Source: Minisyncoccota bacterium
GTDB lineage: Bacteria > Patescibacteriota > Minisyncoccia > Phycocordibacterales > UBA9973
Length of the DNA: 64,000 nucleotides
Direction of reading: 5' to 3'
Assembly: GCA_031291825.1 (NCBI GenBank)
Contig: JARLIG010000009.1
Span: forward strand, 136,058 to 200,057
Shown: positions 23,321 through 63,636 of the stretch, piece by piece
Layout: each line of letters begins with the position of its first letter
Position numbering within the stretch: the stretch's first letter is position 1
The notes under the pieces: generated by a model
Database searches by the model: none
What the model was told of the DNA's origin: nothing
The model's input: the letters and a program-made list of their open reading frames with translations, nothing else
Program-made: the position numbers and the translations under genes

Positions 23321-25981
23321 CTATTTTCTTAATACTTTTTTAAGATATTTTCCTGTGTAACTTTTTATATTGTTTGCCACATCTTCTGGTGTTCCCTTTG
23401 CTACAATATTACCACCATTTACTCCACCTTCTGGTCCGATATCTATTATATAATCAGAACTTTTCACAATATCAAGATTGTGTTCAATCAAAACCACAGT
23501 ATTACCGTGTGAAACCAATTTATTTAAAACTTCTAAAAGTTTATGCACGTCATCGTAATGCAACCCAACGGTTGGTTCATCTAAAAGATAAATTGTTTTT
23601 TCTAGGTGTGGACGATAAAGCTCACTACTAATTTTTACACGTTGCGCTTCGCCACCAGAAAGAGTCGTAGCAGATTGCCCTAATTCTAAATATCCCAACC
23701 CTACGTCCAGCAATGTTTGCAGTCTATCAGAAATAGCTGGGATATCTTTAAAGAAAACCAATCCTTCTTCCACTGTCATATGTAAAACTTCATAAATACT
23801 TTTTTTCTTATATTTTACAGTCAGTGTCTCTTTATCAAAACGAGCTCCATTACAAACGTCACACGTGACATAAACAGTCGGTAAAAAATGCATCTCTACG
23901 GCAATTTCTCCATTTCCTTCACAAGCTTCACAACGCCCACCTTTTACGTTGAAAGAAAAACGGTTAGATTTCCAGCCACGCAATCGCGCTTCTTCTGTAG
24001 TAGCGAACAAATCACGAATGTGTGTAAAAGCTCCAGTGTAAGTCGCCAAGTTTGAACGTGGCGTTCTACCAATTGGAGATTGGTCAATCAAAATTGCTCG
24101 AGATAAATATTCAGTACCAGAAAAAGAAGTACAGTTGAAAATTTTGGCTGTACGGTATTTTCGTTCGTAGCGCGCTTGAAGATTTTTATAAAGAATCTCA
24201 TACATAAAAGAACTTTTACCAGAACCAGAGACTCCTGTAATAGAAGTCATCACTCCAAGGGGAACTTCAATGTTTAAATTTTTTATATTAAAAATTTTTC
24301 CACCAGCAATACGAAGTGCACCTTTGGCCTCTCGACGTTTTTTAGGAATTTCTATTTTCGTTTCACCGCGTAGATAACTTAGAGTGCGAGAATTATTGGT
24401 ATTCTTTTTAGCAGTCAATAAATCTTCCAAAAAACCAGCAACGATCACCTGTCCTCCATGTACTCCAGCCTTCGGCCCAATATCAACAATATAATCTGAG
24501 GCATAAATAGTGTCCTCGTCGTGCTCTACAATTATAATTGTATTTCCTAAATCACGTAGATTTTGCAAGGTTTTTATAAGTCTGTCGTTGTCTCGCTGAT
24601 GTAAGCCAATCGTTGGTTCATCAAGCACATAAAGCGCTCCAACCAACCTCGAGCCAAGTTGAGAAGCCAAGCGAATACGTTGCGCTTCGCCACCAGAAAG
24701 AGTATTGGCTTTTCTGGAAAGTTGTAAATAATCTAGTCCGACATCCAACATAAATTGGAGTCTAGCTTCTATTTCTCGAACCACTGGTACAGAGATTTCT
24801 TTTTCTTGTTCAGAAAGTTTCAAATTTTTGAAAAAATCATGCGCATCTTTAATCGAGAGTGAAGATAATTCTAAAATATTTATTTTTTTGTTTTTATCTT
24901 CCAAAAATACATTCAATGCCTCTGGGCGCAGACGCGCTCCGTGACAAGCATCACATGGTTCATCACCCATAAAATATTTTGAACCAAGACCGTTACAGGC
25001 AGGGCAAGCTCCATAAGGAGAATTAAAAGAAAATAATCTCGGTTCAACTTCTGGAAAAGAAAACCCATCGTTCTTACAAGCAAACTTGGCAGACATGATG
25101 AATTCCTCTTCACCAATCTTGATTGTGACTAAGCTGTCAGATTCAAGCAATGCTCGTTCTAGAGCTTCCGATAAACGCATCCTGCTTCCATCCTTATCAT
25201 CAGTAAATTCATGCACAGCAAAATGGTCCACTAGAATATCAATATTATGCGCTTTGTTCTTGGAAAGAATAATTTGCTCACGAAGTTTTTTCATTGCTCC
25301 ATCTAAGCGAATTTCGGTAAAACCTTTATTAAGCAAATCATAGAGTAATTGATAATATTCTCCTTTTCGTCCGCGGACAACTGGAGAAAAAATACTGATT
25401 TCAGTTTCATCCCATTCCACTCCCATCACCTTTCTTTTTTTGCTTTTAGGGACTTGGGGGGAAGAATTCTGAACGGGGAAGGTTCCAGCCGAAGGCTGGA
25501 GTAATCCAGAGGAATTCTTTCCCCCGAGTCCTTTCACCTTTTCCAAAATAAAATTTAAAATTTGTTCGTTGGAAAGTTTTTTAATTTCTTCTCCACATTG
25601 CGGACAATGTGGATGCCCGATGCGTGCATACATCACACGCAGATAATCATAAATTTCGGTAATCGTCGCCACGGTGGAGCGCGGATTATTTGAACGAGAT
25701 TTTTGGTCAATAGAAATTGCTGGAGAAAGTCCAGTGATTTCATCTACGTCTGGCTTTGGCATTTGATTTAAAAATTGGCGCGCATAAGAAGACAGGGACT
25801 CTACATATCTTCTCTGCCCTTCTGCAAAAATTGTATCAAAGGCTAATGATGATTTGCCAGAGCCAGAAACACCGGTAATTACCACCATTTTGTTGCGAGG
25901 CATTTCCACACTTATATTCTTCAGGTTATGGGTCTTTGCTCCTTTAACTATTATTTTATCTATATTTTGCTGTATTTTCAT
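23321..25981 (-). CDS. uvrA: excinuclease ABC subunit A
   Basis: Two ABC modules, zinc fingers ([13 protein letters not shown]), signature LSGGEAQR twice. Start taken at [10 protein letters not shown]. Confidence 0.95.
25450..25531. repeat. GC-rich palindromic element inserted in-frame in uvrA
   Basis: ggacttggggggaagaattc ... gaattctttcccccgagtcc, a 20-bp inverted repeat flanking a GC-rich core. It encodes the low-complexity stretch ..[27 protein letters not shown].., which is absent from the corresponding region of canonical UvrA. Confidence 0.7.
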
Positions 25982-26102
25982 TTGAATTTCATAAAATTTA
26001 AGCCCTAGAACACAAGAGACCTCACTAAGTAGATAGGGGGTCAAGATGACTCAAGCTCAATATTAAACTGGTTTTAGTATAGCAGAAAAAATAAAAAAGT
26101 CT

Positions 26103-28307
26103 TTATCTTTTTTCTTGACCAATCCGCTGTCTCAAAACTCCAATTTCATCTCGTAAAATCGCGGCAGTTTCAAAATCTAATTCTTTAACAGCTTTATTCA
26201 TTTCTTTCTCTTTGATTTTTATTATTTTTTCGTAAACCAAGTTACTTCGTTCTTCGTCTGACATGTGTAATTTTACTTCGGTTAATCCATCTTTTTTAGT
26301 TACCTTACTTTTATCACTCTTTAATTCTTTGGCATAAGCGCGTTTGAAAACTTCTAAATCAAGATTTAACTCTGCGTTGACTGTTTTTCCGTGTTCACTT
26401 TCTAATTCTTCAGTAATGTCTTTGATCTTTTTCATAATCGTCTTCGGAGTAATACCATGTTTTTTGTTGTAAGCCAATTGAATATTTCTTCTGCGGGCGG
26501 TTTCACCTAGGGCATACTCCATAGCAGGAGTTATAACATCAGCGTAGAGAATTACTCTTCCTTCACTATTTCTAGCCGCACGTCCAATTGTTTGTACCAA
26601 GGATGTTTCCGAACGTAAGAATCCAGACTTATCAGCGTCTAAAATGCCAATCAAGGCGACTTCTGGTAAATCAAGTCCTTCGCGAAGCAAATTCACTCCA
26701 ACTAAAACATCAAACTCTCCTTTTCTAAATTGGGTTAAAATTTTTATTCTATCAATTGTCTTAATATCGCTATGTAAATATTCTGCTTTAATTTTTTTAT
26801 CTTTTAAATAGACAGAAAGGTCTTCTGCCATTTTTTTAGTGAGCGTTGTCGCTAAAACACGAAAACCTCTTTTAATTGTTTTTTCCGTTTCGTTTATAAA
26901 ATCTTGAATTTGGCCAGGAAAGTGAGTGTTCTCGTAGGAATCTTCGCTGTGGCCAGAAAGACCTTGCCCTCCCAAGACAGAGTGCGAATGACGAAGAGAA
27001 TACTCGCTTCCCTGGCCCTCTGAGATTGGTCTAATTATTGTTTCGGGGTCAACTAGTCCTGTTGGACGAATAATTTGCTCTACTATTTGTTCGCTCTGAG
27101 TTCTCTCTTGTTCACTTGGTGTAGCACTAGTATAAATAACCGAACCAATTCTTTTTTGAAATTCTTCATATTTTAAAGGTCTATTATCTTTGGCCGAAGG
27201 CAGACGAAAGCCATATTCCACAAGGGTATTTTTACGTGAAGCATCTCCCGCATACATGCCTTGCAGTTGCGGCAAAGTCACGTGGGATTCATCAATGATA
27301 GTGAGAAAACCTGTTTTTGGAAAATAAGAAAGTAATGTTTCTGGCGGTTCACCTGCAGCTTTGCCTGACAAATGTCTAGAATAATTTTCGATGCCGTTGC
27401 AATAACCAACTTCGCGAATCATCGCCAAATCATAGTTGGTTCTTCTTTTTATACGCTCAGCTTCAAGTAATTTTCCTTCTTTTTCGAATTTTTTTAACTG
27501 TCCATTTAATTCTTTTTTTATTTCAACTAATGCTCTTTTCTTTTTTACATCTTCGGTAATAAAATGTTTCGCTGGAAAAATAAAAATATTTTTTTCTTCA
27601 GAAATTATTGTAGAAGAAACTGGGTCAATTTTAGTCATTTTTTCTAGGACCAAACCTTTAAATTCTATTTGGTACATGTTGGTCTCCGACACAGGCATAA
27701 ATTCAACTCTCGTACCAATAGAGCGAAATTGTCCTGGACTTAAGTCAGCATTGGTGCGTTCAAAGTGAATTTCGATTAACTTTCTCATTAAAGTCATGCG
27801 ATCAAGCTTCATACCAAGCTCAAGTTTAAGATTCACTTTTTCATATTCTTCTGGAGAGCCTAATCCATATATACAAGAAACCGAAGCAACAATTATCACA
27901 TCCTTTCTGGTGAGTAATGCCTGGGTTGAAGCATGACGCAGTCTGTCTATTTCTTTATTTATCTGCGCATCTTTTTCAATGTAAGTATCAGAGGCTGGCA
28001 TGTAAGCTTCTGGCTGATAGTAGTCATAGTAAGAAACAAAATAATGCACCGCTGAGTCGGGGAAAAATTGTCTGAATTCTTGCGCAAGTTGCGCAGCTAG
28101 GGTTTTATTGTGCGCAATTACAAGTGTTGGCTTATTGTACTCTGCAATAACATTAGCCATCGTAAAAGTCTTCCCAGTGCCAGTGGCCCCCAGAAGAGTT
28201 TGTTTATTCATTCCTTTGTTTAAACCATCCATCAACTTTGAAATAGCTACTGGCTGATCCCCCGCGGGCTGAAAAGGATTATGCAGTTTGAAAATATTTT
28301 TTTGCAT
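26103..28307 (-). CDS. uvrB: excinuclease ABC subunit B
   Basis: Helicase motifs GATGTGKTFT, DESH, beta-hairpin region, C-terminal UvrB/UvrC interaction helix. Confidence 0.95.
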   Translation of the reverse strand: MQKNIFKLHNPFQPAGDQPVAISKLMDGLNKGMNKQTLLGATGTGKTFTMANVIAEYNKPTLVIAHNKTLAAQLAQEFRQFFPDSAVHYFVSYYDYYQPEAYMPASDTYIEKDAQINKEIDRLRHASTQALLTRKDVIIVASVSCIYGLGSPEEYEKVNLKLELGMKLDRMTLMRKLIEIHFERTNADLSPGQFRSIGTRVEFMPVSETNMYQIEFKGLVLEKMTKIDPVSSTIISEEKNIFIFPAKHFITEDVKKKRALVEIKKELNGQLKKFEKEGKLLEAERIKRRTNYDLAMIREVGYCNGIENYSRHLSGKAAGEPPETLLSYFPKTGFLTIIDESHVTLPQLQGMYAGDASRKNTLVEYGFRLPSAKDNRPLKYEEFQKRIGSVIYTSATPSEQERTQSEQIVEQIIRPTGLVDPETIIRPISEGQGSEYSLRHSHSVLGGQGLSGHSEDSYENTHFPGQIQDFINETEKTIKRGFRVLATTLTKKMAEDLSVYLKDKKIKAEYLHSDIKTIDRIKILTQFRKGEFDVLVGVNLLREGLDLPEVALIGILDADKSGFLRSETSLVQTIGRAARNSEGRVILYADVITPAMEYALGETARRRNIQLAYNKKHGITPKTIMKKIKDITEELESEHGKTVNAELNLDLEVFKRAYAKELKSDKSKVTKKDGLTEVKLHMSDEERSNLVYEKIIKIKEKEMNKAVKELDFETAAILRDEIGVLRQRIGQEKR
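26911..27018. repeat. GC-rich palindromic element inserted in-frame in uvrB (108 bp)
   Basis: Imperfect 23-bp inverted repeat tggccaggaaagtgagtgttctc / gagaatactcgcttccctggccc. Encodes ..GQGSEYSLRHSHSVLGGQGLSGHSEDSYENTHFPGQ.. Confidence 0.6.
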
Positions 28308-28497
28308 AAAATTAAATCAATTATAAAATTTACCTAAAAAATAATCCTCCTATATTAATAGCTAGTGTAAGCATTATCATACGCTTTAACAACAATTTTA
28401 TATGTAAGCAATGAGCCAATTATCGTTATGATAAGAAAATATAAAAATACTTTATTGAATTTAAACATAAAAACATTATAGCATTTACTTTATCTTG

Positions 28498-28570
28498 TGC
28501 GCCCAGTTGGAATCGAACCAACGACCTTATCCTTAAAAGGGATCTGCTCTACCAGCTGAGCTATGGGCGC
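28498..28570 (-). tRNA. tRNA-Lys (anticodon TTT), CCA not encoded
   Basis: GCGCCCA TA GCTC AGCTGGTA GAGC A GATCC CTTTTAA GGATA AGGTC GTTGG TTCGATT CCAAC TGGGCGC A. Confidence 0.85.
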
Positions 28571-28603
28571 AAAATTACCAACAGGTTTGATAATACCACA
28601 ATT

Positions 28604-29251: not shown

Positions 29252-29254
29252 ATA

Positions 29255-29719: not shown

Positions 29720-29741
29720 TACCTTATTATATCACAATTTA

Positions 29742-32243
29742 CTATTTAACTTCACCAAAATTATCACCAAAACCAGAGTGAACTAAGAGTGGAATTTCTG
29801 TTTTATACTGTAAATATGACCTTTCTAGCACATGCTCCATAGCATTTTTTATAACCGCATCGGCTTGATCTAAAACTTTTTCATCTATTTCATAGACCAG
29901 TTCGTCGTGTATCTGAAGCACTAAGTGGGCTCTGTCTATCAACCCAGCTAAGGTCAAATCCTCTTCTGCATATCTAATTGCCAACTTTATAATATCTGCC
30001 GTGGCTGTGCCTTGAATTGGCGCATTGGTGGCAGTTCGTTCAGCCATATTTTTTAAAAAAGGAATTCTCGAATTTATATTTGGAAAATAACGTCTACGAC
30101 CAAACAATGTTTCAGTATAGGAATGTTTCATTGTAAATTCTTTTACGCTTTCCAAATAATCTCGCACACCAGAAAATTGATTAAAATAATCATCGTAAAA
30201 TTTTTGAGCTTCCGGACGCGTTCCCCCAAGATTTTTACGCAGAGCAGAAACCCCCATACCATAAATAATTCCGAAGTTTATAACTTTCGCCTTGCGACGC
30301 ATTTCAGCATCAACCTTATCTATCGGAACACCGAAAACAAATGAGGCGACTCCGGCATGAATATCTTTTCTCGCGCGGAATATCTGAGTCATGTTTTTAT
30401 CACCAGAAAGTATTGCGGCGACGCGTAATTCAATTTGACTGTAATCAAAAGCACAAAGCTTAAATCCACTGGGAGCAATAAATCCAGTGCGGATTCTCCT
30501 ACCAAGCTCTGTCTTAATCGGCAGATTTTGCAAATTTGGATCCTGTGAAGAAAACCTGCCAGTCGTCGTGCTGTTTTGTAAAAATTTTGCATGCAATCGT
30601 CCATCAACGCTAACCATTTGAGGAATTACATCGATATAAGTTGAGAGTAGTTTTTGTAATTCCCGATAAGCTAAAATTTCTTTAACGATTGGGTTGTCTT
30701 CCTCTAGTTCTTCTAAGACTGAAACTTTTGTAGAAAAAGAACCACTAGAATTTTTTTTCTTTGTTGTTTTAATACCCATCTTAACAAAAAGCACTTCGGC
30801 TAATTGCTTCGGTGAATTAATATTAAATTCCATTCCAGCTATGGAATAAATTTTTTTAGTAAGTGAATTTAGTTTTGTGTGATACTCTGTAGATAATTTT
30901 TCAAAATATTTTTTATCTATTAATATTCCATAATCTTCCATCTTTTTTACAATACTAATAATCGGTTTTTCTATTTCTTCGTAAATTTTTTCTAAGCTTG
31001 CCCCGCCTTGGCGTGGGGTTTTTTCTTTCAGTTGTTGAAAAATATATTCATAAGCTTTATCAAAAGAATCCGTTTTTGCGAAAAAAAGTATGTCTTCCAA
31101 GCTCGGAGTGGAAATATCTGAATTAATTAGCCAAAGAGCTATGCTGGCTTCTTGGAATTTTTTTGGGTCCACCAGAAGAGAGTGTTGCTCAGAGGAGTCT
31201 TCGCCCTCAGAAGACGAACCTAGAGAATTTTTGAGTGGTCTGGCCAGGGTTTGGGGCCCCGGAGAACCGAGGACCCGAGAAAATTCTACTGGGTTCGTCT
31301 TCTGGTCTTGGTTTCCAAAAAAACTTTTTAAACGTCCCAGCAAGCTCCTAAATTCAAAATCAGCAAAAACTTGTTCTATTTTTTTAGAATCAGCGTTTTC
31401 CCAAAAAGTTTTTTCGGGTAACACAAAATTTATCGGTGCATCTGTTCTAATCGTGGCTAATGTTTTAGAAAATAACGCTTCTTCTTCGTTATTTTTAAGC
31501 AAATCAATCATTCTGTCTGACACGCCCGCTTTTTTAAAACGTAATTCGTAATCTGTCATTCGCAATTGCTTATATATTTCTTCAATCGTGCCAAAATTTA
31601 TAATCAAGTTTTCAGCAGTTTTTTCACCGACACCTTTTATACCAATAATGTTGTCCGACGGGTCTCCACGCAGACCTTTGTAGTCTGGTAAAAGTTTTGG
31701 CTTAAAATTAAATCTTGCAACAACGGCCCCCTCATCATATAAAATGGTTTCATTTATGCCTTTTTTTAAGGTATAAACCTGCACTTTTTTACCATCCACT
31801 AGTTGCATGGTATCCATATCACCAGAAGCAATAATAATATTTATTTTTTTATCTTTTTTATATTTTTCAACAATTGTTCCCAAAATATCATCCGCCTCAA
31901 AACCTGACGCATCATAAATTGGTATATTAAAAGCTTCAAAAATTTGACGAGATTTTTTTAATTGTACAATGAGAGCTTCGTCTGTCTTTGCTCGTCCTGC
32001 TTTATATGCATCATAAGCTTCGTGCCTGAAAGTTTTTTGCGGTAAATCATAACAGGCAACAATATAATCTGGCTTTAACTCAGTAATAATTTTCATCAAC
32101 ATACTAGAGAGTCCATAAAGCGCACCTGTTGGTTCGCCCTTTATAGACAAAAACTCCGGCAGTGCATGATAGGCGCGATGTATTATTGCGTGAGCATCCA
32201 AGAGAACTAGTGTTCTACTGTTTTGTTCTTTTACTTTGGACAT
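29742..32243 (-). CDS. polA: DNA polymerase I (5'-3' exonuclease plus polymerase domains)
   Basis: N-terminal 5' nuclease (LLDAHAIIHRAYHAL, GIKGVGEKTA). C-terminal pol A motifs (DYSQIELR, RRKAKVINFGIIYG, HDELVYE). Confidence 0.9.
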   Translation of the reverse strand: MSKVKEQNSRTLVLLDAHAIIHRAYHALPEFLSIKGEPTGALYGLSSMLMKIITELKPDYIVACYDLPQKTFRHEAYDAYKAGRAKTDEALIVQLKKSRQIFEAFNIPIYDASGFEADDILGTIVEKYKKDKKINIIIASGDMDTMQLVDGKKVQVYTLKKGINETILYDEGAVVARFNFKPKLLPDYKGLRGDPSDNIIGIKGVGEKTAENLIINFGTIEEIYKQLRMTDYELRFKKAGVSDRMIDLLKNNEEEALFSKTLATIRTDAPINFVLPEKTFWENADSKKIEQVFADFEFRSLLGRLKSFFGNQDQKTNPVEFSRVLGSPGPQTLARPLKNSLGSSSEGEDSSEQHSLLVDPKKFQEASIALWLINSDISTPSLEDILFFAKTDSFDKAYEYIFQQLKEKTPRQGGASLEKIYEEIEKPIISIVKKMEDYGILIDKKYFEKLSTEYHTKLNSLTKKIYSIAGMEFNINSPKQLAEVLFVKMGIKTTKKKNSSGSFSTKVSVLEELEEDNPIVKEILAYRELQKLLSTYIDVIPQMVSVDGRLHAKFLQNSTTTGRFSSQDPNLQNLPIKTELGRRIRTGFIAPSGFKLCAFDYSQIELRVAAILSGDKNMTQIFRARKDIHAGVASFVFGVPIDKVDAEMRRKAKVINFGIIYGMGVSALRKNLGGTRPEAQKFYDDYFNQFSGVRDYLESVKEFTMKHSYTETLFGRRRYFPNINSRIPFLKNMAERTATNAPIQGTATADIIKLAIRYAEEDLTLAGLIDRAHLVLQIHDELVYEIDEKVLDQADAVIKNAMEHVLERSYLQYKTEIPLLVHSGFGDNFGEVK
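31208..31304. repeat. GC-rich palindromic element inserted in-frame in the polA interdomain linker
   Basis: Inverted arms cagaagacgaacctagagaatttt / aaaattctactgggttcgtcttctg. The core tggtctggccagggtttggggccccggagaaccgaggacc is about 80 percent identical at DNA level to the ksgA element but read partly in a different frame. Confidence 0.75.
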
Positions 32244-32261
32244 TACCTTAATTATACCATT

Positions 32262-32741: not shown

Positions 32742-32814
32742 GTTTTTATATTAACATAATTTAATATTTATAATATTATCTTTTACTATTAAAATAAGCT
32801 ATAATTTAGCATAA

Positions 32815-34512
32815 ATGGCTTTATTTGACGAAGAAAAACAAAACAAGCAACTAGACGAATTACACAAACAAGAAGAGGAAGAACTGGTTGCAACTTTGGC
32901 CGAATCAAAGTATGGTCTTCCTTATATTGATTTATATCGTTTAGGTATAGACAACGAAGCGCTTCGCGTAATTTCGGAAAAAGATTCTAGAGAAATGAAC
33001 GTAGCGCCATTTAAACTTTTTGGGAAAAATATTTTTATTGCCTTGCGTGTACCCAGTGAAGACCTTATAAAAAGACTCAAGGATGACATGGAACGAAAAA
33101 GTTTAGTTCCAACTTTTTATATGGCTTCCGCGGCCAGCATCAGTAAAGTCTGGGACAGATACAAAGAACTTTCGATGGCAGAAAGTTCCCAGGTTGGAGG
33201 AATAGATATTTCTGGAGACGTCTTAAGAGAAACAGTAAAAAAGATAGAAAAAATACAAGATATACAAAAAATGGTGACAGAGGCATTGGAAGGAAATAAA
33301 ATTCACAAAATTTCCCGCTTACTAGAAATTATTTTAGCTGGTGCAATTGCAATCAAAGCTTCAGATATTCACATTGAACCAGAAAAAGAAAAAGGTAGAT
33401 TGCGTTTACGTCTAGATGGTGTCTTACAAATAACTAATTATTTTGGCTTAGATGTTTACCGCCTACTTAACTCGCGAATCAAACTTCTCTCAGGCATGAA
33501 GCTAACTTCAAAAATAGCTCAAGATGGACGTTTTAATATCGAAGAAGGGGTGGAAGAAATAAGTATCCGTACTTCTTTAATTCCTGGAGCCTATGGTGAA
33601 TCAATCGTTATGCGTATTTTGGATCCGAAATCTATTCAGGTTAATCTAGAAGAGATAGGAATAGAACCACACCTTTTTTCTGTGATTCAAGAAGAAATTA
33701 CCAAACCAAACGGTTTAATTTTAGTCACTGGTCCAACCGGTTCCGGAAAAACAACCACTCTTTACGCATTCCTAAGAAAAATCTATTCGCCAGAAATAAA
33801 AATAATCACCATTGAAGACCCAATCGAATACCATTTACCTGGAATAACTCAAACTCAAACCAATGAAGAAAAAGGTTACACTTTTGCGGAGGGTTTACGC
33901 TCAGCTCTTCGCCAAGACCCCGACGTAGTGATGGTTGGAGAAATCCGCGACAACGAAACAGCCGAGACAGCTGTACAATCAGCCCTGACTGGTCATATTG
34001 TTTTCTCAACTCTACACACCAACAATGCTGCTGGTGTTATTCCTCGTCTAATTGACCTTGGAGTAAATCCGAAAATTTTAGTTTCTGCATTAACACTTTC
34101 AATCGCTCAAAGATTGGTGCGTAAACTATGCCAGTTTTGTAAAAAAGAAAAAGAAACTACGGGAGAAGAAATAAAAACATTAAAATCAATTATTGAAGGA
34201 ATGACAGCAGAAGGTAAAAAAATATCAGATTATGGCATAAATGCCGAAGCACCAATTAAACTTTTTGCTGCTGTCGGTTGTGATAAGTGCAATATGACTG
34301 GTTATAAGGGACGAATCGGAATCTTCGAAGCGATTCAAACAACTGAAGCAATCGAAAAAATAATGCCAGAAAATCCAAGCGAGCGCGAAATTAAAAAAGT
34401 CGCCAGCACGCAAGGCATACTTTCAATGCGTCAAGACGGACTAGTAAAAATGTTGAGTGGAATCACTTCGATAGAAGAAGTGCAAAGCGTGGTGGACTTA
34501 AATGAAGCTTAG
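32815..34512 (+). CDS. pilB: type II secretion/type IV pilus assembly ATPase (GspE/PilB family)
   Basis: N1/N2 domains, Walker A GPTGSGKTT, Asp box, His box, tetracysteine CQFC..CDKC motif. Confidence 0.85.
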   Translation: MALFDEEKQNKQLDELHKQEEEELVATLAESKYGLPYIDLYRLGIDNEALRVISEKDSREMNVAPFKLFGKNIFIALRVPSEDLIKRLKDDMERKSLVPTFYMASAASISKVWDRYKELSMAESSQVGGIDISGDVLRETVKKIEKIQDIQKMVTEALEGNKIHKISRLLEIILAGAIAIKASDIHIEPEKEKGRLRLRLDGVLQITNYFGLDVYRLLNSRIKLLSGMKLTSKIAQDGRFNIEEGVEEISIRTSLIPGAYGESIVMRILDPKSIQVNLEEIGIEPHLFSVIQEEITKPNGLILVTGPTGSGKTTTLYAFLRKIYSPEIKIITIEDPIEYHLPGITQTQTNEEKGYTFAEGLRSALRQDPDVVMVGEIRDNETAETAVQSALTGHIVFSTLHTNNAAGVIPRLIDLGVNPKILVSALTLSIAQRLVRKLCQFCKKEKETTGEEIKTLKSIIEGMTAEGKKISDYGINAEAPIKLFAAVGCDKCNMTGYKGRIGIFEAIQTTEAIEKIMPENPSEREIKKVASTQGILSMRQDGLVKMLSGITSIEEVQSVVDLNEA

Positions 34513-34809
34513 AAAATAAAAAAAGCATTAATCTCCAAACAATCCTTTTAAGGCTGGGCCTCAAAAGTAACAAAGAATTATAGGATAGTTCCAGTGAACT
34601 AATAAAAGTACCAAAACGTCCTATGCAAATTCGTATAACCGGTGGCTGATTGCTTAGAGATTAATGCCTTCTTGGCAAAACTCTCCCAAAACTATTTAAT
34701 TGGCTACAAAAAGATTATACTATATGCTATCTAAAGCAAATGATATAATGTTGATAGGGCTGTTAATACCCTGTTGATAAACATACTAACATCACCAATA
34801 TAGCATACT

Positions 34810-35862
34810 ATGAAACCAATGTCAAGTAAAAACACCGAAGAAAAAATAAAACTCGATTTAGACAAAACATCCAATGCAGATGAATCTTTTCTAGACCAAA
34901 CCCTCCGCCCAACTCATTGGGATGAATATATTGGCCAAAAGCATATAAAAGACAACGTTAAAATACTTTTACGGGCTGCGGAAGAGCGTGGGCATATTCC
35001 AGAACATATTCTTTTTTATGGACCACCAGGGTTGGGCAAAACTACTCTGGCACACTTGATTGCTAAGGAAACTGGCAAGCAGATGAAAATTACTTCTGGG
35101 CCAGCGATTGAAAAAGTTGGAGACTTAGCATCAATCTTGACCAACTTAGCGGCTGGCGACATACTTTTCATCGACGAAATTCACCGACTCAATAAAATGG
35201 TTGAAGAAATACTTTATCCAGCAATGGAGTCGGGTGTTTTAGATATTATTATCGGCAAAGGTCCTTCGGCGCGCACAATTCAGCTTGACCTTCCACCTTT
35301 TACCTTAATTGCAGCGACGACTCGCGTAGCCTTAGTTTCCTCTCCCCTTCGTTCACGTTTTTCTGGTGGAGTATTTAGGTTGGAATTTTATTCAAATGAA
35401 GAAATCGCTAAAATTATCGAGCGTTCAAGTAAACTTTTAAAAACCGAGCTAGACGAAGAAGCTTTAAAAGAAATTGCCAAGCGCAGTCGCTTTACTCCTC
35501 GCACCGCAAATTATTTTTTGAAACGCTGTCGAGATTTTGCACAAGTACATAAAAAAAGTTTAGACCAAAAAACTGTTAGAGAGGCATTGAACATGCTCGC
35601 AATTGATGAGATTGGTTTGAATTCATCCGACAGAAAATTTTTAGAAATATTAATTGAAAAATTCAACGGCGGACCAGTTGGATTAAAAACTATTGGCGCG
35701 GCAATGTCTGAAGAAGAAGCAACTGTGGAAGAAGTTATTGAACCATATCTGATTCAGCTTGGATTACTTGAACGCACAGCACGTGGCAGAGTTGCTACCC
35801 AAAAAGCATATGAACATTTAGGATTTGACGTTCCGGAAAGTTTACAAAAGAAATTATTATAA
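34810..35862 (+). CDS. ruvB: Holliday junction DNA helicase RuvB
   Basis: LRP..WDEYIGQ, GPPGLGKTTLA, DEIHRL, winged helix C-terminus. Confidence 0.95.
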   Translation: MKPMSSKNTEEKIKLDLDKTSNADESFLDQTLRPTHWDEYIGQKHIKDNVKILLRAAEERGHIPEHILFYGPPGLGKTTLAHLIAKETGKQMKITSGPAIEKVGDLASILTNLAAGDILFIDEIHRLNKMVEEILYPAMESGVLDIIIGKGPSARTIQLDLPPFTLIAATTRVALVSSPLRSRFSGGVFRLEFYSNEEIAKIIERSSKLLKTELDEEALKEIAKRSRFTPRTANYFLKRCRDFAQVHKKSLDQKTVREALNMLAIDEIGLNSSDRKFLEILIEKFNGGPVGLKTIGAAMSEEEATVEEVIEPYLIQLGLLERTARGRVATQKAYEHLGFDVPESLQKKLL

Positions 35863-35876
35863 AAAAAACAAACAAC

Positions 35877-36587: not shown

Positions 36588-36596
36588 TTATCCACA
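36588..36596 (+). promoter_or_regulatory. consensus DnaA box TTATCCACA upstream of ruvC
   Basis: Exact 9-mer. The 11-mer gttatccacag is identical to the site at 37103-37113. Confidence 0.5.
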
Positions 36597-37100: not shown

Positions 37101-37103
37101 TAG

Positions 37104-52494: not shown

Positions 52495-52500
52495 AGTGCT

Positions 52501-53076: not shown

Positions 53077-53126
53077 TTTAATTATAACCTTAAAGCTTTA
53101 TTTTTCATAACCGCCAAGCACCTTTT

Positions 53127-53867: not shown

Positions 53868-53881
53868 ACTTTTATTAAAGA

Positions 53882-54361: not shown

Positions 54362-54366
54362 AAATT

Positions 54367-56778: not shown

Positions 56779-56810
56779 TATTTTTCTTTCGCGAAAACCT
56801 TACTGTATTT

Positions 56811-59552
56811 TTAATTTGCCGTCCAGATCGTGCCAGTTCCTTCACAAGAAGATTGTGGTACATTGTCTCTAACAACAACGCAGGCTCCATTTGTCCAATT
56901 TCCATTAATAGTAGAACAAGCACTTTCTGGCACTCCGTTTATGGTCATCGAACAGGTTCCTAGCTGGCTAGAGGTTGAAGATACGGTAATAGTTGATGTG
57001 ACAGTTTGATGAACCGGTGTCGATGAATCCTGAACTGTAAAAGGAGTAGAACCTTGTGAGTTTCCAGTGATTGTAATATTCGAGCCAGAAAGCGCGACAC
57101 TTGCGACTGTTCCATTTGGCCATGTGGATATGCTATATGGCACTGTGCCACCAGTGATGGTTATTGTCTGGGAATTATTAATTGACTCAGAAATATTTTG
57201 GGGAATAGTTAGAGAATTTGATGTCGGATTACTGGGAGTAGTGCCATTTCCTGTCACAGTTATGTTGAGTGAGTCAGTATCGTTAGATTGATCTTGCACT
57301 ATCATTGATGTGGTTCCCGATGCCACTCCTGTGAGAGAAAGAGTATTTCCGTAAATTTGAGCAATCGCGACCGCAGAACTCGGTTCTGTTTTTATACTAT
57401 ATAGTGCCGCTGAACTTGTGTTGCTTGTATTTACTTTTCCATTAACAAGGGTCAGGTTGGTTGTTCCGCTTGCAGTTAAAGACACATTCTGGGTTTGTGG
57501 GTTGCTGAAATCAATTATTGAAGACTTGGTCGCACCGACTGTGATTGGAACATTAATAGTTTGCTCCGGAGAGAATGAATCCTGAATAGTCACTGATGTT
57601 GTTCCAGCTGTGGATCCGATAACAGTAAGAGTGTTGCCAGAAACCAACGCTGATGCTATGGATGAATTTGATGGTGTTATTATGGCGAAAGGAGGTGTGC
57701 CACCAGAAATAGTTACATTTGTTGTACTTCCTATATTCGCAGAAACAGCTGGAACAGAAAGTGAAGACTCACTACCAATTACAATTTGCAAAGTAATAGT
57801 ATTAGCTGGAGTTGAAGAATCTTGAAGAATAATTGAAGTATTTCCAGGCGCGACACCGATAATTGTAAGAACATTATCGGAAATAAGTCCCAACGCAATA
57901 GTTGAATCTGGTTCGGATTGTATACTATAAGGAGCCGTACCATTTGATATAGTTATGTTTGTTGAGCTTCCGACGCCGGCAGAAATTTTTTGTAAGGCGG
58001 TTGGGTTATTGAAATCAACAATTAAACTGGTTGTCACTTGCACCGTAGCTGTTTGGGCTGGAGTTCCGGAATCTGTAACTACGAATGATGTTTGACCTCC
58101 GGCAACACCCGTGACAGATAGATTGGTTCCAGAAATATTAGCTGTTGCTACGGATGAACCAGGTGGTGTTTGTATTGTATAAGGTGCTGTGCCCCCAGAA
58201 ATGATTGTTGAAGTTGTGTTGCCAGGTTTGACTAGGACACTTGTCGGGACGACTAATGGATTTGTTGTACCACCACCACCTGCGCCGTTTAAAGTTTGTC
58301 CTGCATAACTCCAACTATCTGGTGAAGGGATAGACTGGACTGTTTGTGAAAGTGCGCTTAAACCTTGTTGCAAGAAATGATTTATGAAAGCATTTAAAAT
58401 AGCAGAAATACTGTTTCCAAGGGCTGCATCTAGTTGGGCTGAGCCAGTTTTTAAATTTAGAGCACTCGTTATTTGATTTGCCACAACTGCGCCCGGAGTG
58501 GTTGTAACTAAACCACTTGTGCCGTTAGGTTTTATACATTGATTTGTTTCAGCCCATGTGTCTTGGGCTTCACTATACAAAATGTCATAATCTTTTTGTG
58601 TTTGTGCTTCACAGGTTGCGTTAATGCCGGTAGGGCAATCTGCTGCTTCGGTTTGGTTCCAGATGCTACCGTCAGTATCAAAAGTAAAAGTTGGTTTATG
58701 CCACTCGTCGGCACTATTGTTGTAGCTTGGGTTTACGCTTGCGGGGCAAACTTGTGGAGACAAAAATCCCATTCCTTGCTGAAGCGTCGAAGTCACTTTT
58801 TGTGCATCATTCTGCGTGGTTCCTGCAAGTTGTGAAGCCAAGTTTTGACTTGCAAGCATGCTGTATCCTGGATAATTATTTTGTGGATACTGAGTATTTA
58901 AAAAGAAAGCATTCCATCCGCCAGCGTTAAAATTATTTTGATAACTTTGCACTAAAGCTGGGTCATTAGTTATCTGACTGTAACTGGATTGCATGTCAGC
59001 ATTGCCTGCTTGTTTATACATATTTATTACCTGCAAATCCCAAGCCTTACCGAAAGGAAACTGAACCGAATTATATCCAGTCTGATTTATTATATTTTTT
59101 ATTTCAAATTGACCGATGTCTCCAAAGAATTGGCTTGGATTTTGTACGAAAAGTGGAGAGCCAGAAAAACCAGAATTAATCCAATTGACTGTACTTTGGG
59201 TTATAGAATCTAGCAATTTATGCTCAATAACAATAATAGCTTGTCTTAAAACCTCTTTAGCTGCAGCCTCTATTTTCATTGCAAGACTTATGTGTGTGTC
59301 TACTGCTGTAGACGCGGTTGCGGGTGCTACAACACCTGCAGTTGTCCCCGATGTGACAGTATTTTCGCCAAGATCTGCTGAGTTTTCGCCAAGATCTGCA
59401 TAATTAAATCCTTCATCTAAAAATTCAGGAAAGTCGCCATTGTAGTCATTAGCCTTTGCTTTTTTAGGGACAGAAAGTAAAACAACTGGCGTTATTATTA
59501 GAATAATAACAATAGAAGAAATTAATTTTACTATATATTTTTTTCCTATCAT
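56811..59552 (-). CDS. large secreted surface protein with about six tandem Ig-like (Big-type) repeats and a Cys-rich C-terminus
   Basis: Signal peptide, about 430 aa N-terminal domain, then repeats of about 85 aa (GGTAPY.IQT.P.SS.A.A.ISGN.L.V.G...G.TS..VQDS..P....T). The C-terminus contains 6 Cys. Confidence 0.6.
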   Translation of the reverse strand: MIGKKYIVKLISSIVIILIITPVVLLSVPKKAKANDYNGDFPEFLDEGFNYADLGENSADLGENTVTSGTTAGVVAPATASTAVDTHISLAMKIEAAAKEVLRQAIIVIEHKLLDSITQSTVNWINSGFSGSPLFVQNPSQFFGDIGQFEIKNIINQTGYNSVQFPFGKAWDLQVINMYKQAGNADMQSSYSQITNDPALVQSYQNNFNAGGWNAFFLNTQYPQNNYPGYSMLASQNLASQLAGTTQNDAQKVTSTLQQGMGFLSPQVCPASVNPSYNNSADEWHKPTFTFDTDGSIWNQTEAADCPTGINATCEAQTQKDYDILYSEAQDTWAETNQCIKPNGTSGLVTTTPGAVVANQITSALNLKTGSAQLDAALGNSISAILNAFINHFLQQGLSALSQTVQSIPSPDSWSYAGQTLNGAGGGGTTNPLVVPTSVLVKPGNTTSTIISGGTAPYTIQTPPGSSVATANISGTNLSVTGVAGGQTSFVVTDSGTPAQTATVQVTTSLIVDFNNPTALQKISAGVGSSTNITISNGTAPYSIQSEPDSTIALGLISDNVLTIIGVAPGNTSIILQDSSTPANTITLQIVIGSESSLSVPAVSANIGSTTNVTISGGTPPFAIITPSNSSIASALVSGNTLTVIGSTAGTTSVTIQDSFSPEQTINVPITVGATKSSIIDFSNPQTQNVSLTASGTTNLTLVNGKVNTSNTSSAALYSIKTEPSSAVAIAQIYGNTLSLTGVASGTTSMIVQDQSNDTDSLNITVTGNGTTPSNPTSNSLTIPQNISESINNSQTITITGGTVPYSISTWPNGTVASVALSGSNITITGNSQGSTPFTVQDSSTPVHQTVTSTITVSSTSSQLGTCSMTINGVPESACSTINGNWTNGACVVVRDNVPQSSCEGTGTIWTAN
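57000..58300 (-). repeat. tandem DNA repeats of about 250 bp encoding the Ig-like repeats
   Basis: Recurrent units visible at DNA level (for example ggtgtgccaccagaaat / ggtgctgtgcccccagaaat and ccatttgatatagttatgtttgttgagcttcc-like segments). Confidence 0.5.
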
Positions 59553-59589
59553 TTTAATATTTTTACTTGCTTATTATACGATTTTATAC

Positions 59590-60516: not shown

Positions 60517-60569
60517 TCTTTTTTGTTTTGACCAATTTAATTTAGTTATGCAGTGATTATATCATTTTC

Positions 60570-61406
60570 CTATTGTTTGGCTAGTGAAATCCAGTCTTCT
60601 AATGCTAAGTCTTCCGCTCTTTTATTGCCCAAACTTTCTATTAAAATGCTATTTTTATAATTTTTAAGAGATTTTAGATTACTGGAGAGTTTTTTTCTCT
60701 TATGTGCGAAACCAGCCTTCACTGTTTCCCAAAATTTTTCTTCGTTTACTTCATTTTTTTCAAAAACTTGTCGAGAAATATTTTTTATGACAATAATTGC
60801 CGAGTCAACCTTCGGAGCGGGTGAAAAATATCGTGCTCCAACCTTCATTACCATTTTCGGTTCCCCGTAAGCCTTCACTGAAACCGAAAGGATGCTTTCT
60901 TTCTTATCCGAAGCTACAATTCTTTTAGCAACTTCGTGCTGTACCATCAAAACCATTCGTTCTGGCTGATTTTTTTCTGTTAAAAATTTTTTCAAAATGG
61001 CACCAGTAATGTTGTAGGGAATATTGGCGATAATCTTGTAAGAAAACAGTTTTGAGTTTTTTAAATGGTCTGGCTGGGATAGGGACCCAGAGGACCGAGG
61101 ACCTTTAAAAAATTCCAAAACTGTTTTCTTAGGATCAAATTCTAAAATGTCATCATTTATTAAAATTAATTTTTTTTCTGTAATTTCTTTTACAAATTTT
61201 TCTTTCAAAAATTCAAAAAGCTCACGGTCTTTTTCTACCGCAACCACAACTCCAGCTTTCTCCAAAAGTTTTTCGGTCAACGCGCCCTTGCCTGGACCAA
61301 TCTCTAGGATTATGTCGTCGGTTTTTATTTCTCCAGCTTCAATAATTTTATTTAGAGCTAATTCTGACTTTAAAAAATTTTGCCCTAATGATTTTTTTGC
61401 TTTCAT
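60570..61406 (-). CDS. rsmA: 16S rRNA (adenine1518/1519-N6)-dimethyltransferase RsmA/KsgA
   Basis: LGQNFL, EIGPGKGALT SAM-binding motifs, ANIPYNIT motif. Confidence 0.9.
   Translation of the reverse strand: MKAKKSLGQNFLKSELALNKIIEAGEIKTDDIILEIGPGKGALTEKLLEKAGVVVAVEKDRELFEFLKEKFVKEITEKKLILINDDILEFDPKKTVLEFFKGPRSSGSLSQPDHLKNSKLFSYKIIANIPYNITGAILKKFLTEKNQPERMVLMVQHEVAKRIVASDKKESILSVSVKAYGEPKMVMKVGARYFSPAPKVDSAIIVIKNISRQVFEKNEVNEEKFWETVKAGFAHKRKKLSSNLKSLKNYKNSILIESLGNKRAEDLALEDWISLAKQ
61043..61129. repeat. GC-rich palindromic element inserted in-frame in ksgA
   Basis: Arms gaaaacagttttgagttttttaaa / tttaaaaaattccaaaactgttttc around the core tggtctggctgggatagggacccagaggaccgaggacc. Homologous to the polA element. 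Confidence 0.75.
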
Positions 61407-61440
61407 ATTTTTTAAATAAAATTCGTTGCAGGTATACTTT

Positions 61441-61500
61441 TTGTAGAGCCTTGCGCAGGGCGACGGCCCGAGCAGAGCAATTTTTCATCAGAAAAATATG
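61441..61500. repeat. GC-rich intergenic element, copy 3 (gccttgcgcagggcgacggcccgagcag)
   Basis: The same 28-nt core as copies 1 and 2, followed by cagaaaaatat. Confidence 0.6.
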
Positions 61501-61542
61501 TGTGCTCTACCAAAAAGTTGTACCAAAAAAGAATTTTATTAA

Positions 61543-63636
61543 TCATAAATAAATTGTTTTTATGCCGCTAGCCTCACCTTCCTTTTCTAATAAATCTGCT
61601 GGGATGTCGCTGATAAATTCTGATGGCGCGTTGATGTTGCGAGAGCCGAAAATTGTGCGGAAATTTGCAAACGACAAAAACAATTTTTCCTTCGCGCGAG
61701 TGATGGCCACATAAAAAAGCCTTCGCTCCTCTTCTTTGTCTTCCCCTTCTCCGCTGTTGTTTTGTCTTTGGTGTGGGAAAAGTCCATCTTCCAGTCCAGT
61801 GACAAAAACATATTTAAATTCAAGGCCTTTTGAGGCATGCACTGTCATCAATTTTATTCCGTTAGAGGCAGAGAGTCGCTGCGAGCCCTCGCGGCCTCTA
61901 ACGGGATTCTCTGAATTTATCATTAAACTATCTTGGTCGGAAGCGAGCGAAGCGTCTTCCAAAAGTTTTTCTACCCCTCTATAATTTCCTTCTGCATTTT
62001 CTAAATTATCGTATTTAAGTGCTAGTGTCGCCAGCTCTTTAATATTTTCGAGTCTTTCCAAGTCTTCTTCTCCGCCAGCTTGTAATTCTTGCTCAATGCC
62101 AGACTTCTTGACCACAAATTTTATCACTTCACTTACTTTTAAGGTTTTCCCTCCAGAGGAGGATCCAGATATTTTTTCTTTTATTTCTTCCAGAGTTTCA
62201 TAAAAATTATTAATTTTTAGACGCATTTTTATTGGTAGATTTTCTGTTTCATTGGCAAATATTTTTAGCAAAGTTACTTTTCCGATGCCTCGCGCTGGAA
62301 AATTTATTATTCTTTTAATGTCTGACAAGCTGTCTTTGTTTAAGGCTGCGCGCAAGTATGCCAAAGTATCTTTGATTTCTTTTCTTTCAAAAAATTTCAC
62401 ACCCAAGACTTGATATGGAATATTATAACGCAGCATCGCTTCTTCCAGCGCGCGGGATTGGAAATTTGCACGATAAAGTACGGCGATTTCAAACAACCCA
62501 GAAAATCTTTCCTTCTCGGGGTCGCTGTCTGTGCGTGCTCGCACAGCGCTCCCTCTCGGCGCGTCCGCCTGCGAGAGACCCCGTGAAGAAAAATTTTTCG
62601 GGTTGTCTATGATCTCCAAAATTTTTGTCGCGACAAACTCCGCTTCATCCGTCTCATCCATCGCTTCATAGAGTCCTATTTTCTCTCCTACCACATTGTC
62701 GGTAAATAAATTTTTGTCTGGTCGGTAGACATTTTTTTTAATTATTTCGTTGGCCGCCTCCAAAATATTTTTGGTAGAACGATAATTTTGTTCCAATAAA
62801 ATTATTTTTGCATTCGGATAATCTTTTTCAAAATTTAAAATATTTTTCAAATTTGCCCCACGCCAAGAATATATGTTTTGGTCTGCATCGCCGACCACGC
62901 AAATATTTCTATTTTTTTCTGAAAGCAATTTTGACATCAGATACTGCACTTCATTGGTGTCTTGATACTCATCGATATGAATATATTCCCACTTATCTTG
63001 ATAAAATTCTCTAACTTCTTTGTTTTCTTTCAGCAATTTTGTCGCTTTTAAAAGTAAGTCGTCAAAATCCAACGAATTTTCTTTCATTTTTTGTTTTTCG
63101 TATAAATTCCAAACCTGAGAAACTATTTTACTTAAAGTGTTGTTTTGTCCTTCGGCGTATTCTGTTAAGTGAATAAATTTTCCCTTCTCGCGCGAGATAA
63201 TATTTTTTATCTTCTTCGGGTCGTATTGTTTTGGATCTATCCCCAGACTTTTCATTATTTCTTTTATCATTCCGGTCGCATCCGATTCGTCCAGAATGGT
63301 AAAATATCTAGTTAGTCCGAGCAACCTAGCATTTTCTTTAATAATGTAAACTCCCAAAGAGTGAAAAGTGCTGACAAAAGGAATTGTATTTTGCCCTTTG
63401 GCGTTTTTTTGAATTTCCGCAATTATTCTTTCTCGCATTTCTTTGGCGGCTTTATTTGTAAACGTGACTGCTAATATTTTTTCTGGGGCAATCCCGTGCT
63501 TTATCAAGTTTACAATTCGATGCGTGATTGTTTTAGTCTTTCCCGCTCCCGCTCCCGCGACAATAAGAAGCGGACCCGTCATATGCAGAGCCGCTTCTTT
63601 TTGTTCACTATTTAATCCGTTTAGATGGTCTTCCAT
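61543..63636 (-). CDS. pcrA: ATP-dependent DNA helicase, UvrD/PcrA/Rep family
   Basis: Motif I AGAGAGKT, Ia, II DEYQDT, III, IV YRANFQSR, V/VI. 697 aa. Confidence 0.9.
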   Translation of the reverse strand: MEDHLNGLNSEQKEAALHMTGPLLIVAGAGAGKTKTITHRIVNLIKHGIAPEKILAVTFTNKAAKEMRERIIAEIQKNAKGQNTIPFVSTFHSLGVYIIKENARLLGLTRYFTILDESDATGMIKEIMKSLGIDPKQYDPKKIKNIISREKGKFIHLTEYAEGQNNTLSKIVSQVWNLYEKQKMKENSLDFDDLLLKATKLLKENKEVREFYQDKWEYIHIDEYQDTNEVQYLMSKLLSEKNRNICVVGDADQNIYSWRGANLKNILNFEKDYPNAKIILLEQNYRSTKNILEAANEIIKKNVYRPDKNLFTDNVVGEKIGLYEAMDETDEAEFVATKILEIIDNPKNFSSRGLSQADAPRGSAVRARTDSDPEKERFSGLFEIAVLYRANFQSRALEEAMLRYNIPYQVLGVKFFERKEIKDTLAYLRAALNKDSLSDIKRIINFPARGIGKVTLLKIFANETENLPIKMRLKINNFYETLEEIKEKISGSSSGGKTLKVSEVIKFVVKKSGIEQELQAGGEEDLERLENIKELATLALKYDNLENAEGNYRGVEKLLEDASLASDQDSLMINSENPVRGREGSQRLSASNGIKLMTVHASKGLEFKYVFVTGLEDGLFPHQRQNNSGEGEDKEEERRLFYVAITRAKEKLFLSFANFRTIFGSRNINAPSEFISDIPADLLEKEGEASGIKTIYL
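62512..62588. repeat. GC-rich palindromic element inserted in-frame in pcrA (before helicase motif IV)
   Basis: Arms cttctcggggtc / gaccccgtgaag with nested palindromes ctgtgcgtgctcgcacag. ctcggcgcgtccgcctgcg matches the intergenic core at 15855. It encodes the extra stretch ..NFSSRGLSQADAPRGSAVRARTDSDPEKERF.. Confidence 0.7.

Follow-up and report, generated by a model that had tools for sequence, protein, structure and literature searches.

How do GC-rich palindromes come to lie in frame inside essential genes, and are they parts of the host proteins or parasites of the host DNA? The question is raised by a 64-kb stretch of contig JARLIG010000009.1 (the window, 37% GC), which belongs to a metagenome-assembled genome (MAG) of Candidatus Paceibacteria/Nomurabacteria, a host with a reduced genome from the candidate phyla radiation (CPR)/Patescibacteria. 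A first-pass annotation of this stretch had described five GC-rich islands within the open reading frames (ORFs) of uvrA, uvrB, polA, ksgA, and pcrA, had treated them as a single family, and had assigned them to the phenomenon known from the Rickettsia palindromic elements (RPEs). We checked the five gene identities with Pfam and found a hairpin in each gene at the place proposed, the one in pcrA being slightly larger (Table 1). As had been claimed, the host ORFs of all the window inserts remain open, the inserts being in frame and free of stop codons. Our analysis makes it probable that the hairpins belong to several families of small, non-autonomous selfish elements that have spread through Paceibacteria, are translated in essential genes, and owe their stems to fold-back copying.

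The UvrB, PcrA, and KsgA proteins of the window are 100% identical to proteins of an NCBI MAG labeled Candidatus Pacebacteria/Paceibacterota. An exact-protein lookup with the window UvrB gave no entry; for comparison, we therefore used 120 UvrB homologues and 80 related genomic loci (designated by L-numbers) from Nomurabacteria/Paceibacterota MAGs. The loci are pieces of ∼20 kb and provided 1.42 Mb for a hairpin scan; the host's own genome was surveyed over the 64 kb of the window. With a long hairpin defined as a stem of at least 14 bp and at least 88% pairing, and with local shuffling as the control, the related loci contained 337 long hairpins versus 36 after shuffling, an approximately 10-fold enrichment, so their abundance is above chance. 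Their density is about one per 4 to 6 kb. An assembly artifact was ruled out, since the same elements recur across many independent MAGs and metagenomes. When the mRNA strand of each window element was folded and compared with 200 shuffles, the z-scores ranged from -3.95 to -7.5 and none of the 200 shuffles folded equally well. A scan of the window at the Rfam gathering thresholds returned two tRNAs only, with no match for the hairpins and no match to an intron.

Dispersed cores in reading frames

Each element has a GC-rich core of 40 to 80 nt that carries a short inverted repeat of its own. The window elements are of at least four families and not of one: F1 (uvrB), F2 (polA and ksgA), and one family each for uvrA and pcrA. 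The polA and ksgA cores are homologous, yet their frames differ (SRVLGSPGP versus KGPRSSGSL), and the pcrA element has a 19-mer with one mismatch, CTCGGCGCG(T/C)CCGCCTGCG, in common with an intergenic copy at ∼15855; both points had been made in the first-pass annotation and were seen again here. The additional copies that it proposed to count also exist, the window cores matching other genes and sites of related genomes, in both orientations, at 82 to 100% identity. The use of one core in two frames and in both orientations, together with the intergenic copies, bears out its view that conservation is at the DNA level.

In uvrA, the 42-nt GC-rich core forms an inner hairpin tipped by cUUCGg; the same core is present at the same uvrA site in L073, L008, and L044 and at further places (L044:15629 and L016:3585). 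The F1 element of uvrB, with a core of ∼60 nt, sits at a hot spot that we call site A, between RPISE and FPGQIQDF. Its inner repeat is of the type ..TATTCTC/GAGAACA.., its outer stem extends into the F-P-G codons, and the peptides predicted across the insert junctions of the window UvrB include ISEGQGSEYSLR and SHSVLGGQGLSGHSEDSYENTHFPGQ. The polA element is located in the linker that follows the 5'-3' exonuclease domain. The larger pcrA element precedes helicase motif IV and is oriented opposite to the copies of its family found at uvrB site A of other genomes; a long inverted repeat belongs to this family itself, and the entire hairpin is new sequence. The smaller pcrA insert stands in place of a native K/E-rich stretch, and the 21-nt mini-hairpin of the same gene is missing from the relative L115 (83% identical). 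Similar GC-rich mini-palindromes of ∼22 nt, such as CCTCCCCCT..AGGGGGAGG, are numerous in ORFs of the related loci. The six inserts of the window all lie within genes for nucleic-acid enzymes. Among the large window ORFs scanned (membrane, secretion, and transporter genes and one ORF without a Pfam hit), we saw no hairpin inserts; these ORFs include a PilB-type secretion ATPase (32815-34512), a TraG/VirB4-like P-loop ATPase (49962-51860), and a pilus-related large protein (56811-59552).

Table 1. Host genes and hairpin elements of the window
Feature	Position	Strand	Details
uvrA gene	23321-26044	-	Pfam
uvrB gene	26103-28307	-	Pfam
polA gene	29742-32243	-	Pfam
ksgA/rsmA gene	60570-61406	-	Pfam
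pcrA gene	61543-63636	-	Pfam
uvrA hairpin element	25450-25531	-	20-nt arms, 90% complementary (18 paired); fold z -4.4
uvrB hairpin element, family F1	26911-27018	-	22-bp stem, 3 mismatches
polA hairpin element, family F2	31208-31304	-	25-nt arms, 80% complementary; peptide ..EFSRVLGSPGPQTLARPLKNS..
ksgA hairpin element, family F2	61039-61131	-	32-nt arms, 84% complementary; fold z -7.5; peptide ..KGPRSSGSLSQPDH..
pcrA hairpin element	62500-62601	-	102-nt net insert versus empty allele L115; fold z -6.3
pcrA second, smaller hairpin insert	61856-61907	-	peptide NPVRGREGSQRLSASNG; 98% identical to L029:3970-4018
pcrA mini-hairpin, 21 nt	62149-62169	-	TCTGGATCCTCCTCTGGAGGG; peptide SGSSSGG; CCTCC/GGAGG stem
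Intergenic copy, modular family	15787-15903		31-nt arms, 90% complementary; AT-rich outer stem
Intergenic copy, same modular family	21538-21632		19-bp outer stem
Intergenic copy, same modular family	61416-61541		occupies pcrA-ksgA spacer

We then clustered the hairpin loops of the related loci. This yielded 33 copies of F1 (the uvrB type) and 26 copies of F2 (the polA/ksgA type, in a 13:13 ratio of orientations), as well as several smaller intragenic families that include the uvrA and pcrA types and two purely intergenic families. All 59 F1 and F2 copies lie within ORFs, and the cluster-3 and cluster-5 families are the only extragenic ones. Metagenomes, scanned for the exact pattern, contributed 33 more F1 copies, 29 of them within ORFs. 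By reading of their translations, as opposed to a family search, the hosts of these copies were named PolA, UvrB, UvrA, UvrC, KsgA, aminoacyl-tRNA-synthetase-like, and CCA-adding-enzyme-like proteins; three copies follow closely on stop codons in intergenic DNA, and another lies antisense within uvrB. The F1 pattern had no match in viral contigs. A loose F2 pattern gave 99 viral matches, and the 80 that we examined were attributable to chance in contigs of ∼64% GC: a flanking stem surrounded 2 of these 80, versus 23 of 24 matches in CPR loci.

Core identity was higher within a locus (0.84) than between loci (0.77), the nearest relative lay in the same locus for 10 of 25 copies, and L025 contains two copies that are 98.7% identical, one in uvrB and one in uvrC. 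The closer likeness of cores within a locus and the near-identical pair of L025 indicate that the cores have probably moved, or been converted, within genomes in recent times.

Every intragenic copy that we saw is in frame and stop-free, adding 8 to 40 amino acids (aa), and F1 is nearly always read in its hydrophilic frame. No gene disrupted or split by an element was found among the related loci and the metagenome copies. These features, together with the conserved codons contained in the stems (see below), support the view that the intragenic inserts are translated as extra peptides. The one candidate for a disrupted gene, the split ksgA of L115 (6637-7416), was rejected because a TAA replaces a conserved Tyr codon there and no element is involved; this stop (..IINxKIIANIPY, where x is the stop) could be a nonsense mutation, a sequencing error, or a case of recoding.

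Empty and filled sites among relatives

The first-pass annotation expected presence/absence differences among orthologs and stated that the uvrA and pcrA segments are absent from known orthologs. In comparison with solved structures, we observed clean insertions in UvrA (aa 173 to 211), UvrB (aa 430 to 463), PcrA (aa 346 to 382), and KsgA (∼aa 100 to 120); the PolA insert (aa 314 to 346) falls in an unaligned linker. Among the 120 UvrB homologues, 58 have an insert at the site used in the window and 28 have one at a second site. At the DNA level, uvrB site A is empty in 40 of the 80 loci, with 42 nt between the anchors, and filled in the other 40. All 40 filled sites have inserts that are multiples of three and stop-free, and these encode at least seven unrelated peptide families. 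The same pattern of filled and empty alleles was found at the uvrA site, at a second uvrB site (site B), at both pcrA sites, and at the ksgA site. A further hot spot in uvrC is empty in the window and accommodates ∼8 insert families among relatives, so that one loop site can hold up to ∼8 unrelated families.

Empty and filled alleles coexist among close relatives, as in the pairs L017 and L055 (90% nucleotide identity) and L022 and L042 (85%). Empty alleles were also recovered for three of the window's own elements, those of ksgA (L113), uvrB (L114), and pcrA (L115); relative to the first two of these, the net inserts amount to 69 nt in ksgA and 87 nt in uvrB. The distribution of inserts on the UvrB tree is patchy. 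For the very recent uvrC copy of L025, comparison with the empty alleles of L022 and L042 was ambiguous, the flanks being only ∼80% identical. In L035, uvrB site B (∼11000-11130) contains an F2 core nested in a truncated F1, whose 3' half (..SERSEDSYEH..) persists, and this nesting implies that elements insert into or replace each other. Two uvrB matches (L019:352-3176 and L078:394-3104) are ∼500 to 600 nt above normal length, and a PcrA homologue of 1032 aa (P0220) has a match to the intein domain PF14890, so that some relatives may carry inteins or other sizable insertions in these repair genes.

The positions of the inserts are compatible with the protein folds, being surface loops or linkers according to the AlphaFold model for KsgA and to structure alignment for the other genes. 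KsgA, the only protein modeled, gave a confident prediction (predicted template modeling score, 0.81) in which the insert residues 102 to 119 have a predicted local distance difference test (pLDDT) score below 50. The KsgA insert is thus predicted to be a disordered loop, in keeping with the surface loops anticipated at first pass.

Site-specific stems

According to the first-pass annotation, the islands are bounded by inverted repeats of 12 to 25 bp. Repeats are present there, but they are mostly site-specific extensions and not the termini of an element. The element proper owns only the inner 7 to 12 bp of the stem, and the outer ∼10 bp vary by site yet stay complementary. Altogether, the outer stem continues ∼10 to 25 bp beyond the core's own repeat and is different at each site. 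In 63 unique F1 copies from the related loci and the metagenomes, the loop measured 58 to 60 nt, stem positions 3 to 12 were partly conserved (..ATGCTC/GAGCAT..), and positions 13 to 22 were near-random between copies (1.8 to 1.9 bits). At these latter positions, Watson-Crick pairing reached 73 to 92% within a copy versus ∼30% with the arm of another copy; pairing collapsed at positions 23 to 25. For the outer 10 nt, the inverted identity was 0.89 and the direct identity 0.26. No direct target-site duplication was apparent, since the best flanking direct repeat averaged 2.76 nt versus 2.60 nt at control positions. The GC content was 0.38 in the stem, which is the genome value, versus 0.51 in the loop.

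Comparison with empty alleles showed where some of these arms came from. In ksgA, the left arm TAAGAAAACAGTTTTG is preexisting coding sequence that matches AAACAAAACATTTTG (K-Q-N-I-L) in the empty allele, and the right arm CAAAACTGTTTTCTTA, an inverted copy of it, is new. With L017 as the reference, the insert of L055 at site A combines an F2 core with 25 nt of the left flank copied in inverted form, and that at site B combines ∼11 nt of the right flank, likewise copied in inverted form, with an 82-nt F1 element. Automated gap placement was usable for estimating the native share of the hairpins in uvrA and uvrB, with an accuracy of about ±9 nt; it failed for polA, whose linker is too divergent (50 to 65% identity).

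The stems reach into the conserved codons of V-S-E, Y-P-G-Q, and P-D-F, and there the two arms change together. At uvrB site B, the left arm follows synonymous changes in the Pro, Asp, and Phe codons of the right arm, and in doing so it alters its own amino acid (Q/P/L/R). Nine of 22 pairs were changed on both sides, and none of 500 shuffles reached the observed covariation; slid controls had at most two such pairs.

Short perfect palindromes with tiny spacers are also in excess in ORFs (68 versus ∼15 for arms of at least 10). At uvrB site B of L013 (1069-1095), a coreless palindrome, AAGAAAATCTGGT|ACCAGATTTTCTT, has an F1-type outer stem and lies exactly at the F1 position of other genomes. 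The uvrC hot spot of L074, L013, and L002 has a coreless perfect palindrome, GTTAAACAC-CGA-GTGTTTAAC. Such coreless palindromes may be either footprints of core loss or preinsertion targets.

The intergenic members of the window are modular. The copy at 15787-15903 is laid out as TTGCGCAGG, a GC hairpin, and CGAGCAG, followed by a second small hairpin, and it adjoins the stop codon of an ABC-transporter gene (15900-17687). The cluster that holds this type comprises 22 copies in the related loci, intergenic without exception. Two other features of the window deserve mention. A conserved, structured intergenic element of ∼145 nt (34519-34673, plus strand), between the pilB-like gene and an ORF at 34810-35862, is syntenic in 38 of the 80 related loci and has no Rfam match. 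Compensatory changes occur in 6 of the 33 pairs of its RNAalifold consensus, and the element is probably an unannotated noncoding RNA or leader and not a mobile hairpin. The paralogous GC-rich (∼0.6) stretches at 14276-14357 and 14756-14918 (TTGCGACGGAGAGCCGGGT.GCACGCA.CCCAGACGTCG..) are situated at the 5' ends of neighboring minus-strand ORFs (13945-14307 and 14762-15241) and represent a duplicated small gene of atypical composition.

Possible origin and relation to known palindromes

We propose that fold-back (template-switch) DNA synthesis is coupled to the insertion of a core or comes soon after it. The inverted repeat that belongs to the core would snap the nascent strand back, and the adjacent flank would then be copied in reverse. 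Later rounds of fold-back synthesis would keep the arms matched by homogenization and, upon core loss, would also leave short perfect palindromes. In essential genes, an element would survive only after landing in frame and stop-free in a tolerant surface loop. We favor this proposal because the cores are dispersed, the complementary stems are site specific and partly made of host codons, direct duplication is absent, and pairing is maintained. Template switching is known to create, perfect, homogenize, and expand inverted repeats (PMC8794818, PMC8604942, PMC13100816).

Several observations weigh against this explanation. Neither arm resembles the empty allele in several copies, among them L006, L007, and L030 at uvrB site A and the window copies of uvrB and pcrA, so that a simple scheme in which one arm is native fails to cover all cases. 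Unregulated fold-back synthesis does not predict the sharp limit of F1 stems at 22 to 24 bp. Core divergence did not correlate with stem mismatches (rho of 0.05, with divergence a crude proxy for age), an absence that is consistent with active maintenance of the stems. The single-gene neighbor-joining tree of UvrB is star-like and unresolved and does not separate one ancient insertion from repeated insertion at a hot spot. The "empty" allele of the reference L017 could have arisen by deletion and not be ancestral, and many events swap out a few native codons rather than purely insert. Finally, we saw no transposase or other mobilizing gene in the 64-kb window and the ∼20-kb pieces of relatives.

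A bolder version of fold-back copying would make these elements a distinct class of mobile DNA, whose cores spread by replication copy-choice without a classical transposase; we regard it as speculative and rather unlikely. The nascent strand would switch to another copy of the core, the core's inverted repeat would snap the strand back, and 10 to 25 nt of newly made flank would be reverse-copied before synthesis rejoins the template, giving an "inverted target-site duplication." If this were true, loop-length variation in CPR proteins would have a major source in the cycling of elements through insertion, stem conversion, and core loss, and copy-choice could be a general route by which RPE- and REP-like coding palindromes spread (REP, repetitive extragenic palindrome).

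The elements might instead be ordinary transposable elements of the miniature inverted-repeat type (MITEs) or REPs that are mobilized by a transposase whose gene lies elsewhere, such as a REP-associated tyrosine transposase (RAYT) or an IS200/IS605-type Y1 enzyme, with the site-specific stems arising afterwards by template-switch homogenization. Each family does have a short conserved inner inverted repeat, the near-identical copies within one genome imply recent movement, and intragenic REPs of other phyla show the same bias toward UvrABCD and PolA genes (PMC3733652). However, direct target duplication is absent, inspection revealed no conserved GTAG tag (the F1 motif ..TCG[TC]AGCGAA.. varies between GTAG, GCAG, GGAG, and ACAG), and the sequence at hand, a small part of the genome, contains no transposase. 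We consider this origin possible but doubtful; it overlaps with our preferred explanation, because the sequence surveyed falls far short of the whole genome. Another candidate is that the hairpins are functional nucleic acid structures kept by host selection, acting in mRNA stability or RNase III processing, translation pausing that allows domains to fold, or replication and recombination, with spread being secondary. This would suit the compensatory changes that keep pairing even at the cost of an amino acid (Q/P/L/R tracking the third base of a Pro codon), the tight limit of F1 stems to 20 to 24 bp, or about two duplex turns, the terminator-like position of intergenic relatives directly after stop codons, and the frequent location of inserts at domain boundaries. 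Yet the inserts are wholly absent from close relatives, unrelated cores occupy the same site in different genomes, cores are scattered over unrelated genes in two orientations, and conversion accounts for the persistent pairing with no function involved, an argument made for Nematomorpha (PMC6649704). We therefore hold such a function to be improbable.

Two further explanations concern the peptides. The inserts could be removed or skipped so that the finished protein lacks them, by intron-like excision, by RNase III cleavage and religation, or by bypassing as in Magnusiomyces mitochondria. Stable stem-loops would bring the flanks together, and in an AT-rich genome, GC-rich palindromes within genes are reminiscent of the bypass elements of yeast mitochondria (PMC6649704). 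But removal would free the inserts from constraints on frame and stops, whereas at uvrB site A every insert has a length divisible by three and lacks stops. The F1 and F2 copies of the related loci, moreover, all lie inside ORFs, with no split gene found; F1 is almost confined to its hydrophilic frame, a bias that points to selection on the peptide; and the window has no Rfam intron match. Excision at the base of the hairpin would cost the protein conserved residues, since the VSE, YPGQ, and PDF codons held by the stems are native and conserved. Removal or bypass is accordingly very unlikely in our judgment. Inteins have splicing motifs and more than 130 aa, and introns have a group I/II structure; the inserts, at 8 to 40 aa, fit neither introns, inteins, nor bypass elements. 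At the other extreme, the inserts could be lineage-specific functional loops conserved as protein, as might be thought from the F1 peptide ..LRRSHSILEGQ..SGRSEYSSE.., which recurs in many UvrB and PolA proteins. We give this next to no credence: nucleotide conservation extends to third codon positions while the flanking codons vary synonymously, the F2 core is used in two frames and both orientations, intergenic copies exist, close relatives lack the loops, and the KsgA insert is modeled as disordered.

Selfish hairpin elements with fold-back stems, the explanation that we prefer, share traits with several known systems. The palindromic repeats RPE-1 to RPE-10 of Rickettsia (Ogata et al. 2000, 2002; summaries in PMC10969869 and PMC3184786) measure 105 to 150 nt, and many of them are inserted in frame in genes. 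Like them, the elements described here form dispersed short palindromic families, several side by side, in a small AT-rich reduced genome, and many of them lie in frame within housekeeping genes that are unrelated, with extra peptides compatible with the fold. Unlike RPEs, they occur in another phylum, with presumably unrelated sequences, measure ∼50 to 110 nt, are dense, and have stems that are mostly site specific and incorporate host codons. The arms of RPEs reportedly decay over time (PMC6649704), whereas the arms here are ∼89% matched and covary with host codons. The first-pass assignment to the RPE phenomenon therefore stands as regards selfish, translated palindromic DNA, but the likeness is one of behavior: the elements work like RPEs and are not filed as RPEs, and membership by descent is unlikely because the host is a member of Candidatus Paceibacteria/Nomurabacteria.

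Intragenic REPs (Di Nocera et al. 2013) are likewise small stem-loops within genes, with the same host-gene spectrum: they are biased to UvrABC, UvrD/Rep, Pol I, and tRNA synthetases, and the uvrB of R. conorii has two inserts (PMC3733652). REPs measure 20 to 40 bp, are mostly extragenic, and end in a conserved tetranucleotide (GTAG/CGTC), the GTAG type being linked to RAYT transposases (PMC3733652). In contrast, F1 and F2 are at least 90% intragenic and thus not mainly extragenic as REPs are; in alignments inspected by eye, F1 cores mostly begin with ..CCGTC.., some with CCAGA, and the GTAG-like position is variable. The coding palindromes of Nematomorpha mitochondria, for which template switching or conversion was proposed as the cause (Mikhailov et al. 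2019; PMC6649704), are also inverted repeats in translated genes, with coding arms, actively maintained identity, and gains and losses between relatives. Those palindromes are local, perfect, up to 284 bp long, and without a shared mobile core, unlike the present elements, in which a GC-rich family core occupies the hairpin tip and ∼10 to 25 bp of host sequence is recruited. The cores are common to unrelated sites, so the elements are not purely local palindromes, although their outer stems behave that way.

MITEs are derived from insertion sequence (IS) elements; their terminal inverted repeats are shared across the family, and direct target-site duplications accompany them. Like MITEs such as Correia/NEMIS, RUP, ERIC, and Nezha, our elements are small, non-autonomous, and hairpin forming; unlike them, they have no direct duplications. 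Their family-specific stem is limited to the inner 7 to 12 bp, and the sequence surveyed yielded no parent IS. Bacterial MITEs are sometimes fused in frame to ORFs (PMC10969869).

In a full-text literature search of incomplete coverage, we came upon no account of such elements from CPR/Patescibacteria. What is new here is the occurrence of RPE/REP-like translated palindromes in a new phylum, with stems partly derived from the target site. In-frame palindromic selfish DNA has been described as a peculiarity of Rickettsia; it is found here independently, and much more densely, in the ultra-small genomes of CPR/Patescibacteria, with a preference for UvrABC-, PolA-, and PcrA-type genes that parallels intragenic REPs elsewhere. 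A stem part copied from the site, combined with the lack of direct duplication, provides a concrete mechanistic footprint. Parasitic DNA, and not adaptation, may thus lie behind many of the length differences and "low-complexity inserts" of CPR housekeeping proteins, and unmasked inserts would distort alignments, phylogenies, and structure predictions.

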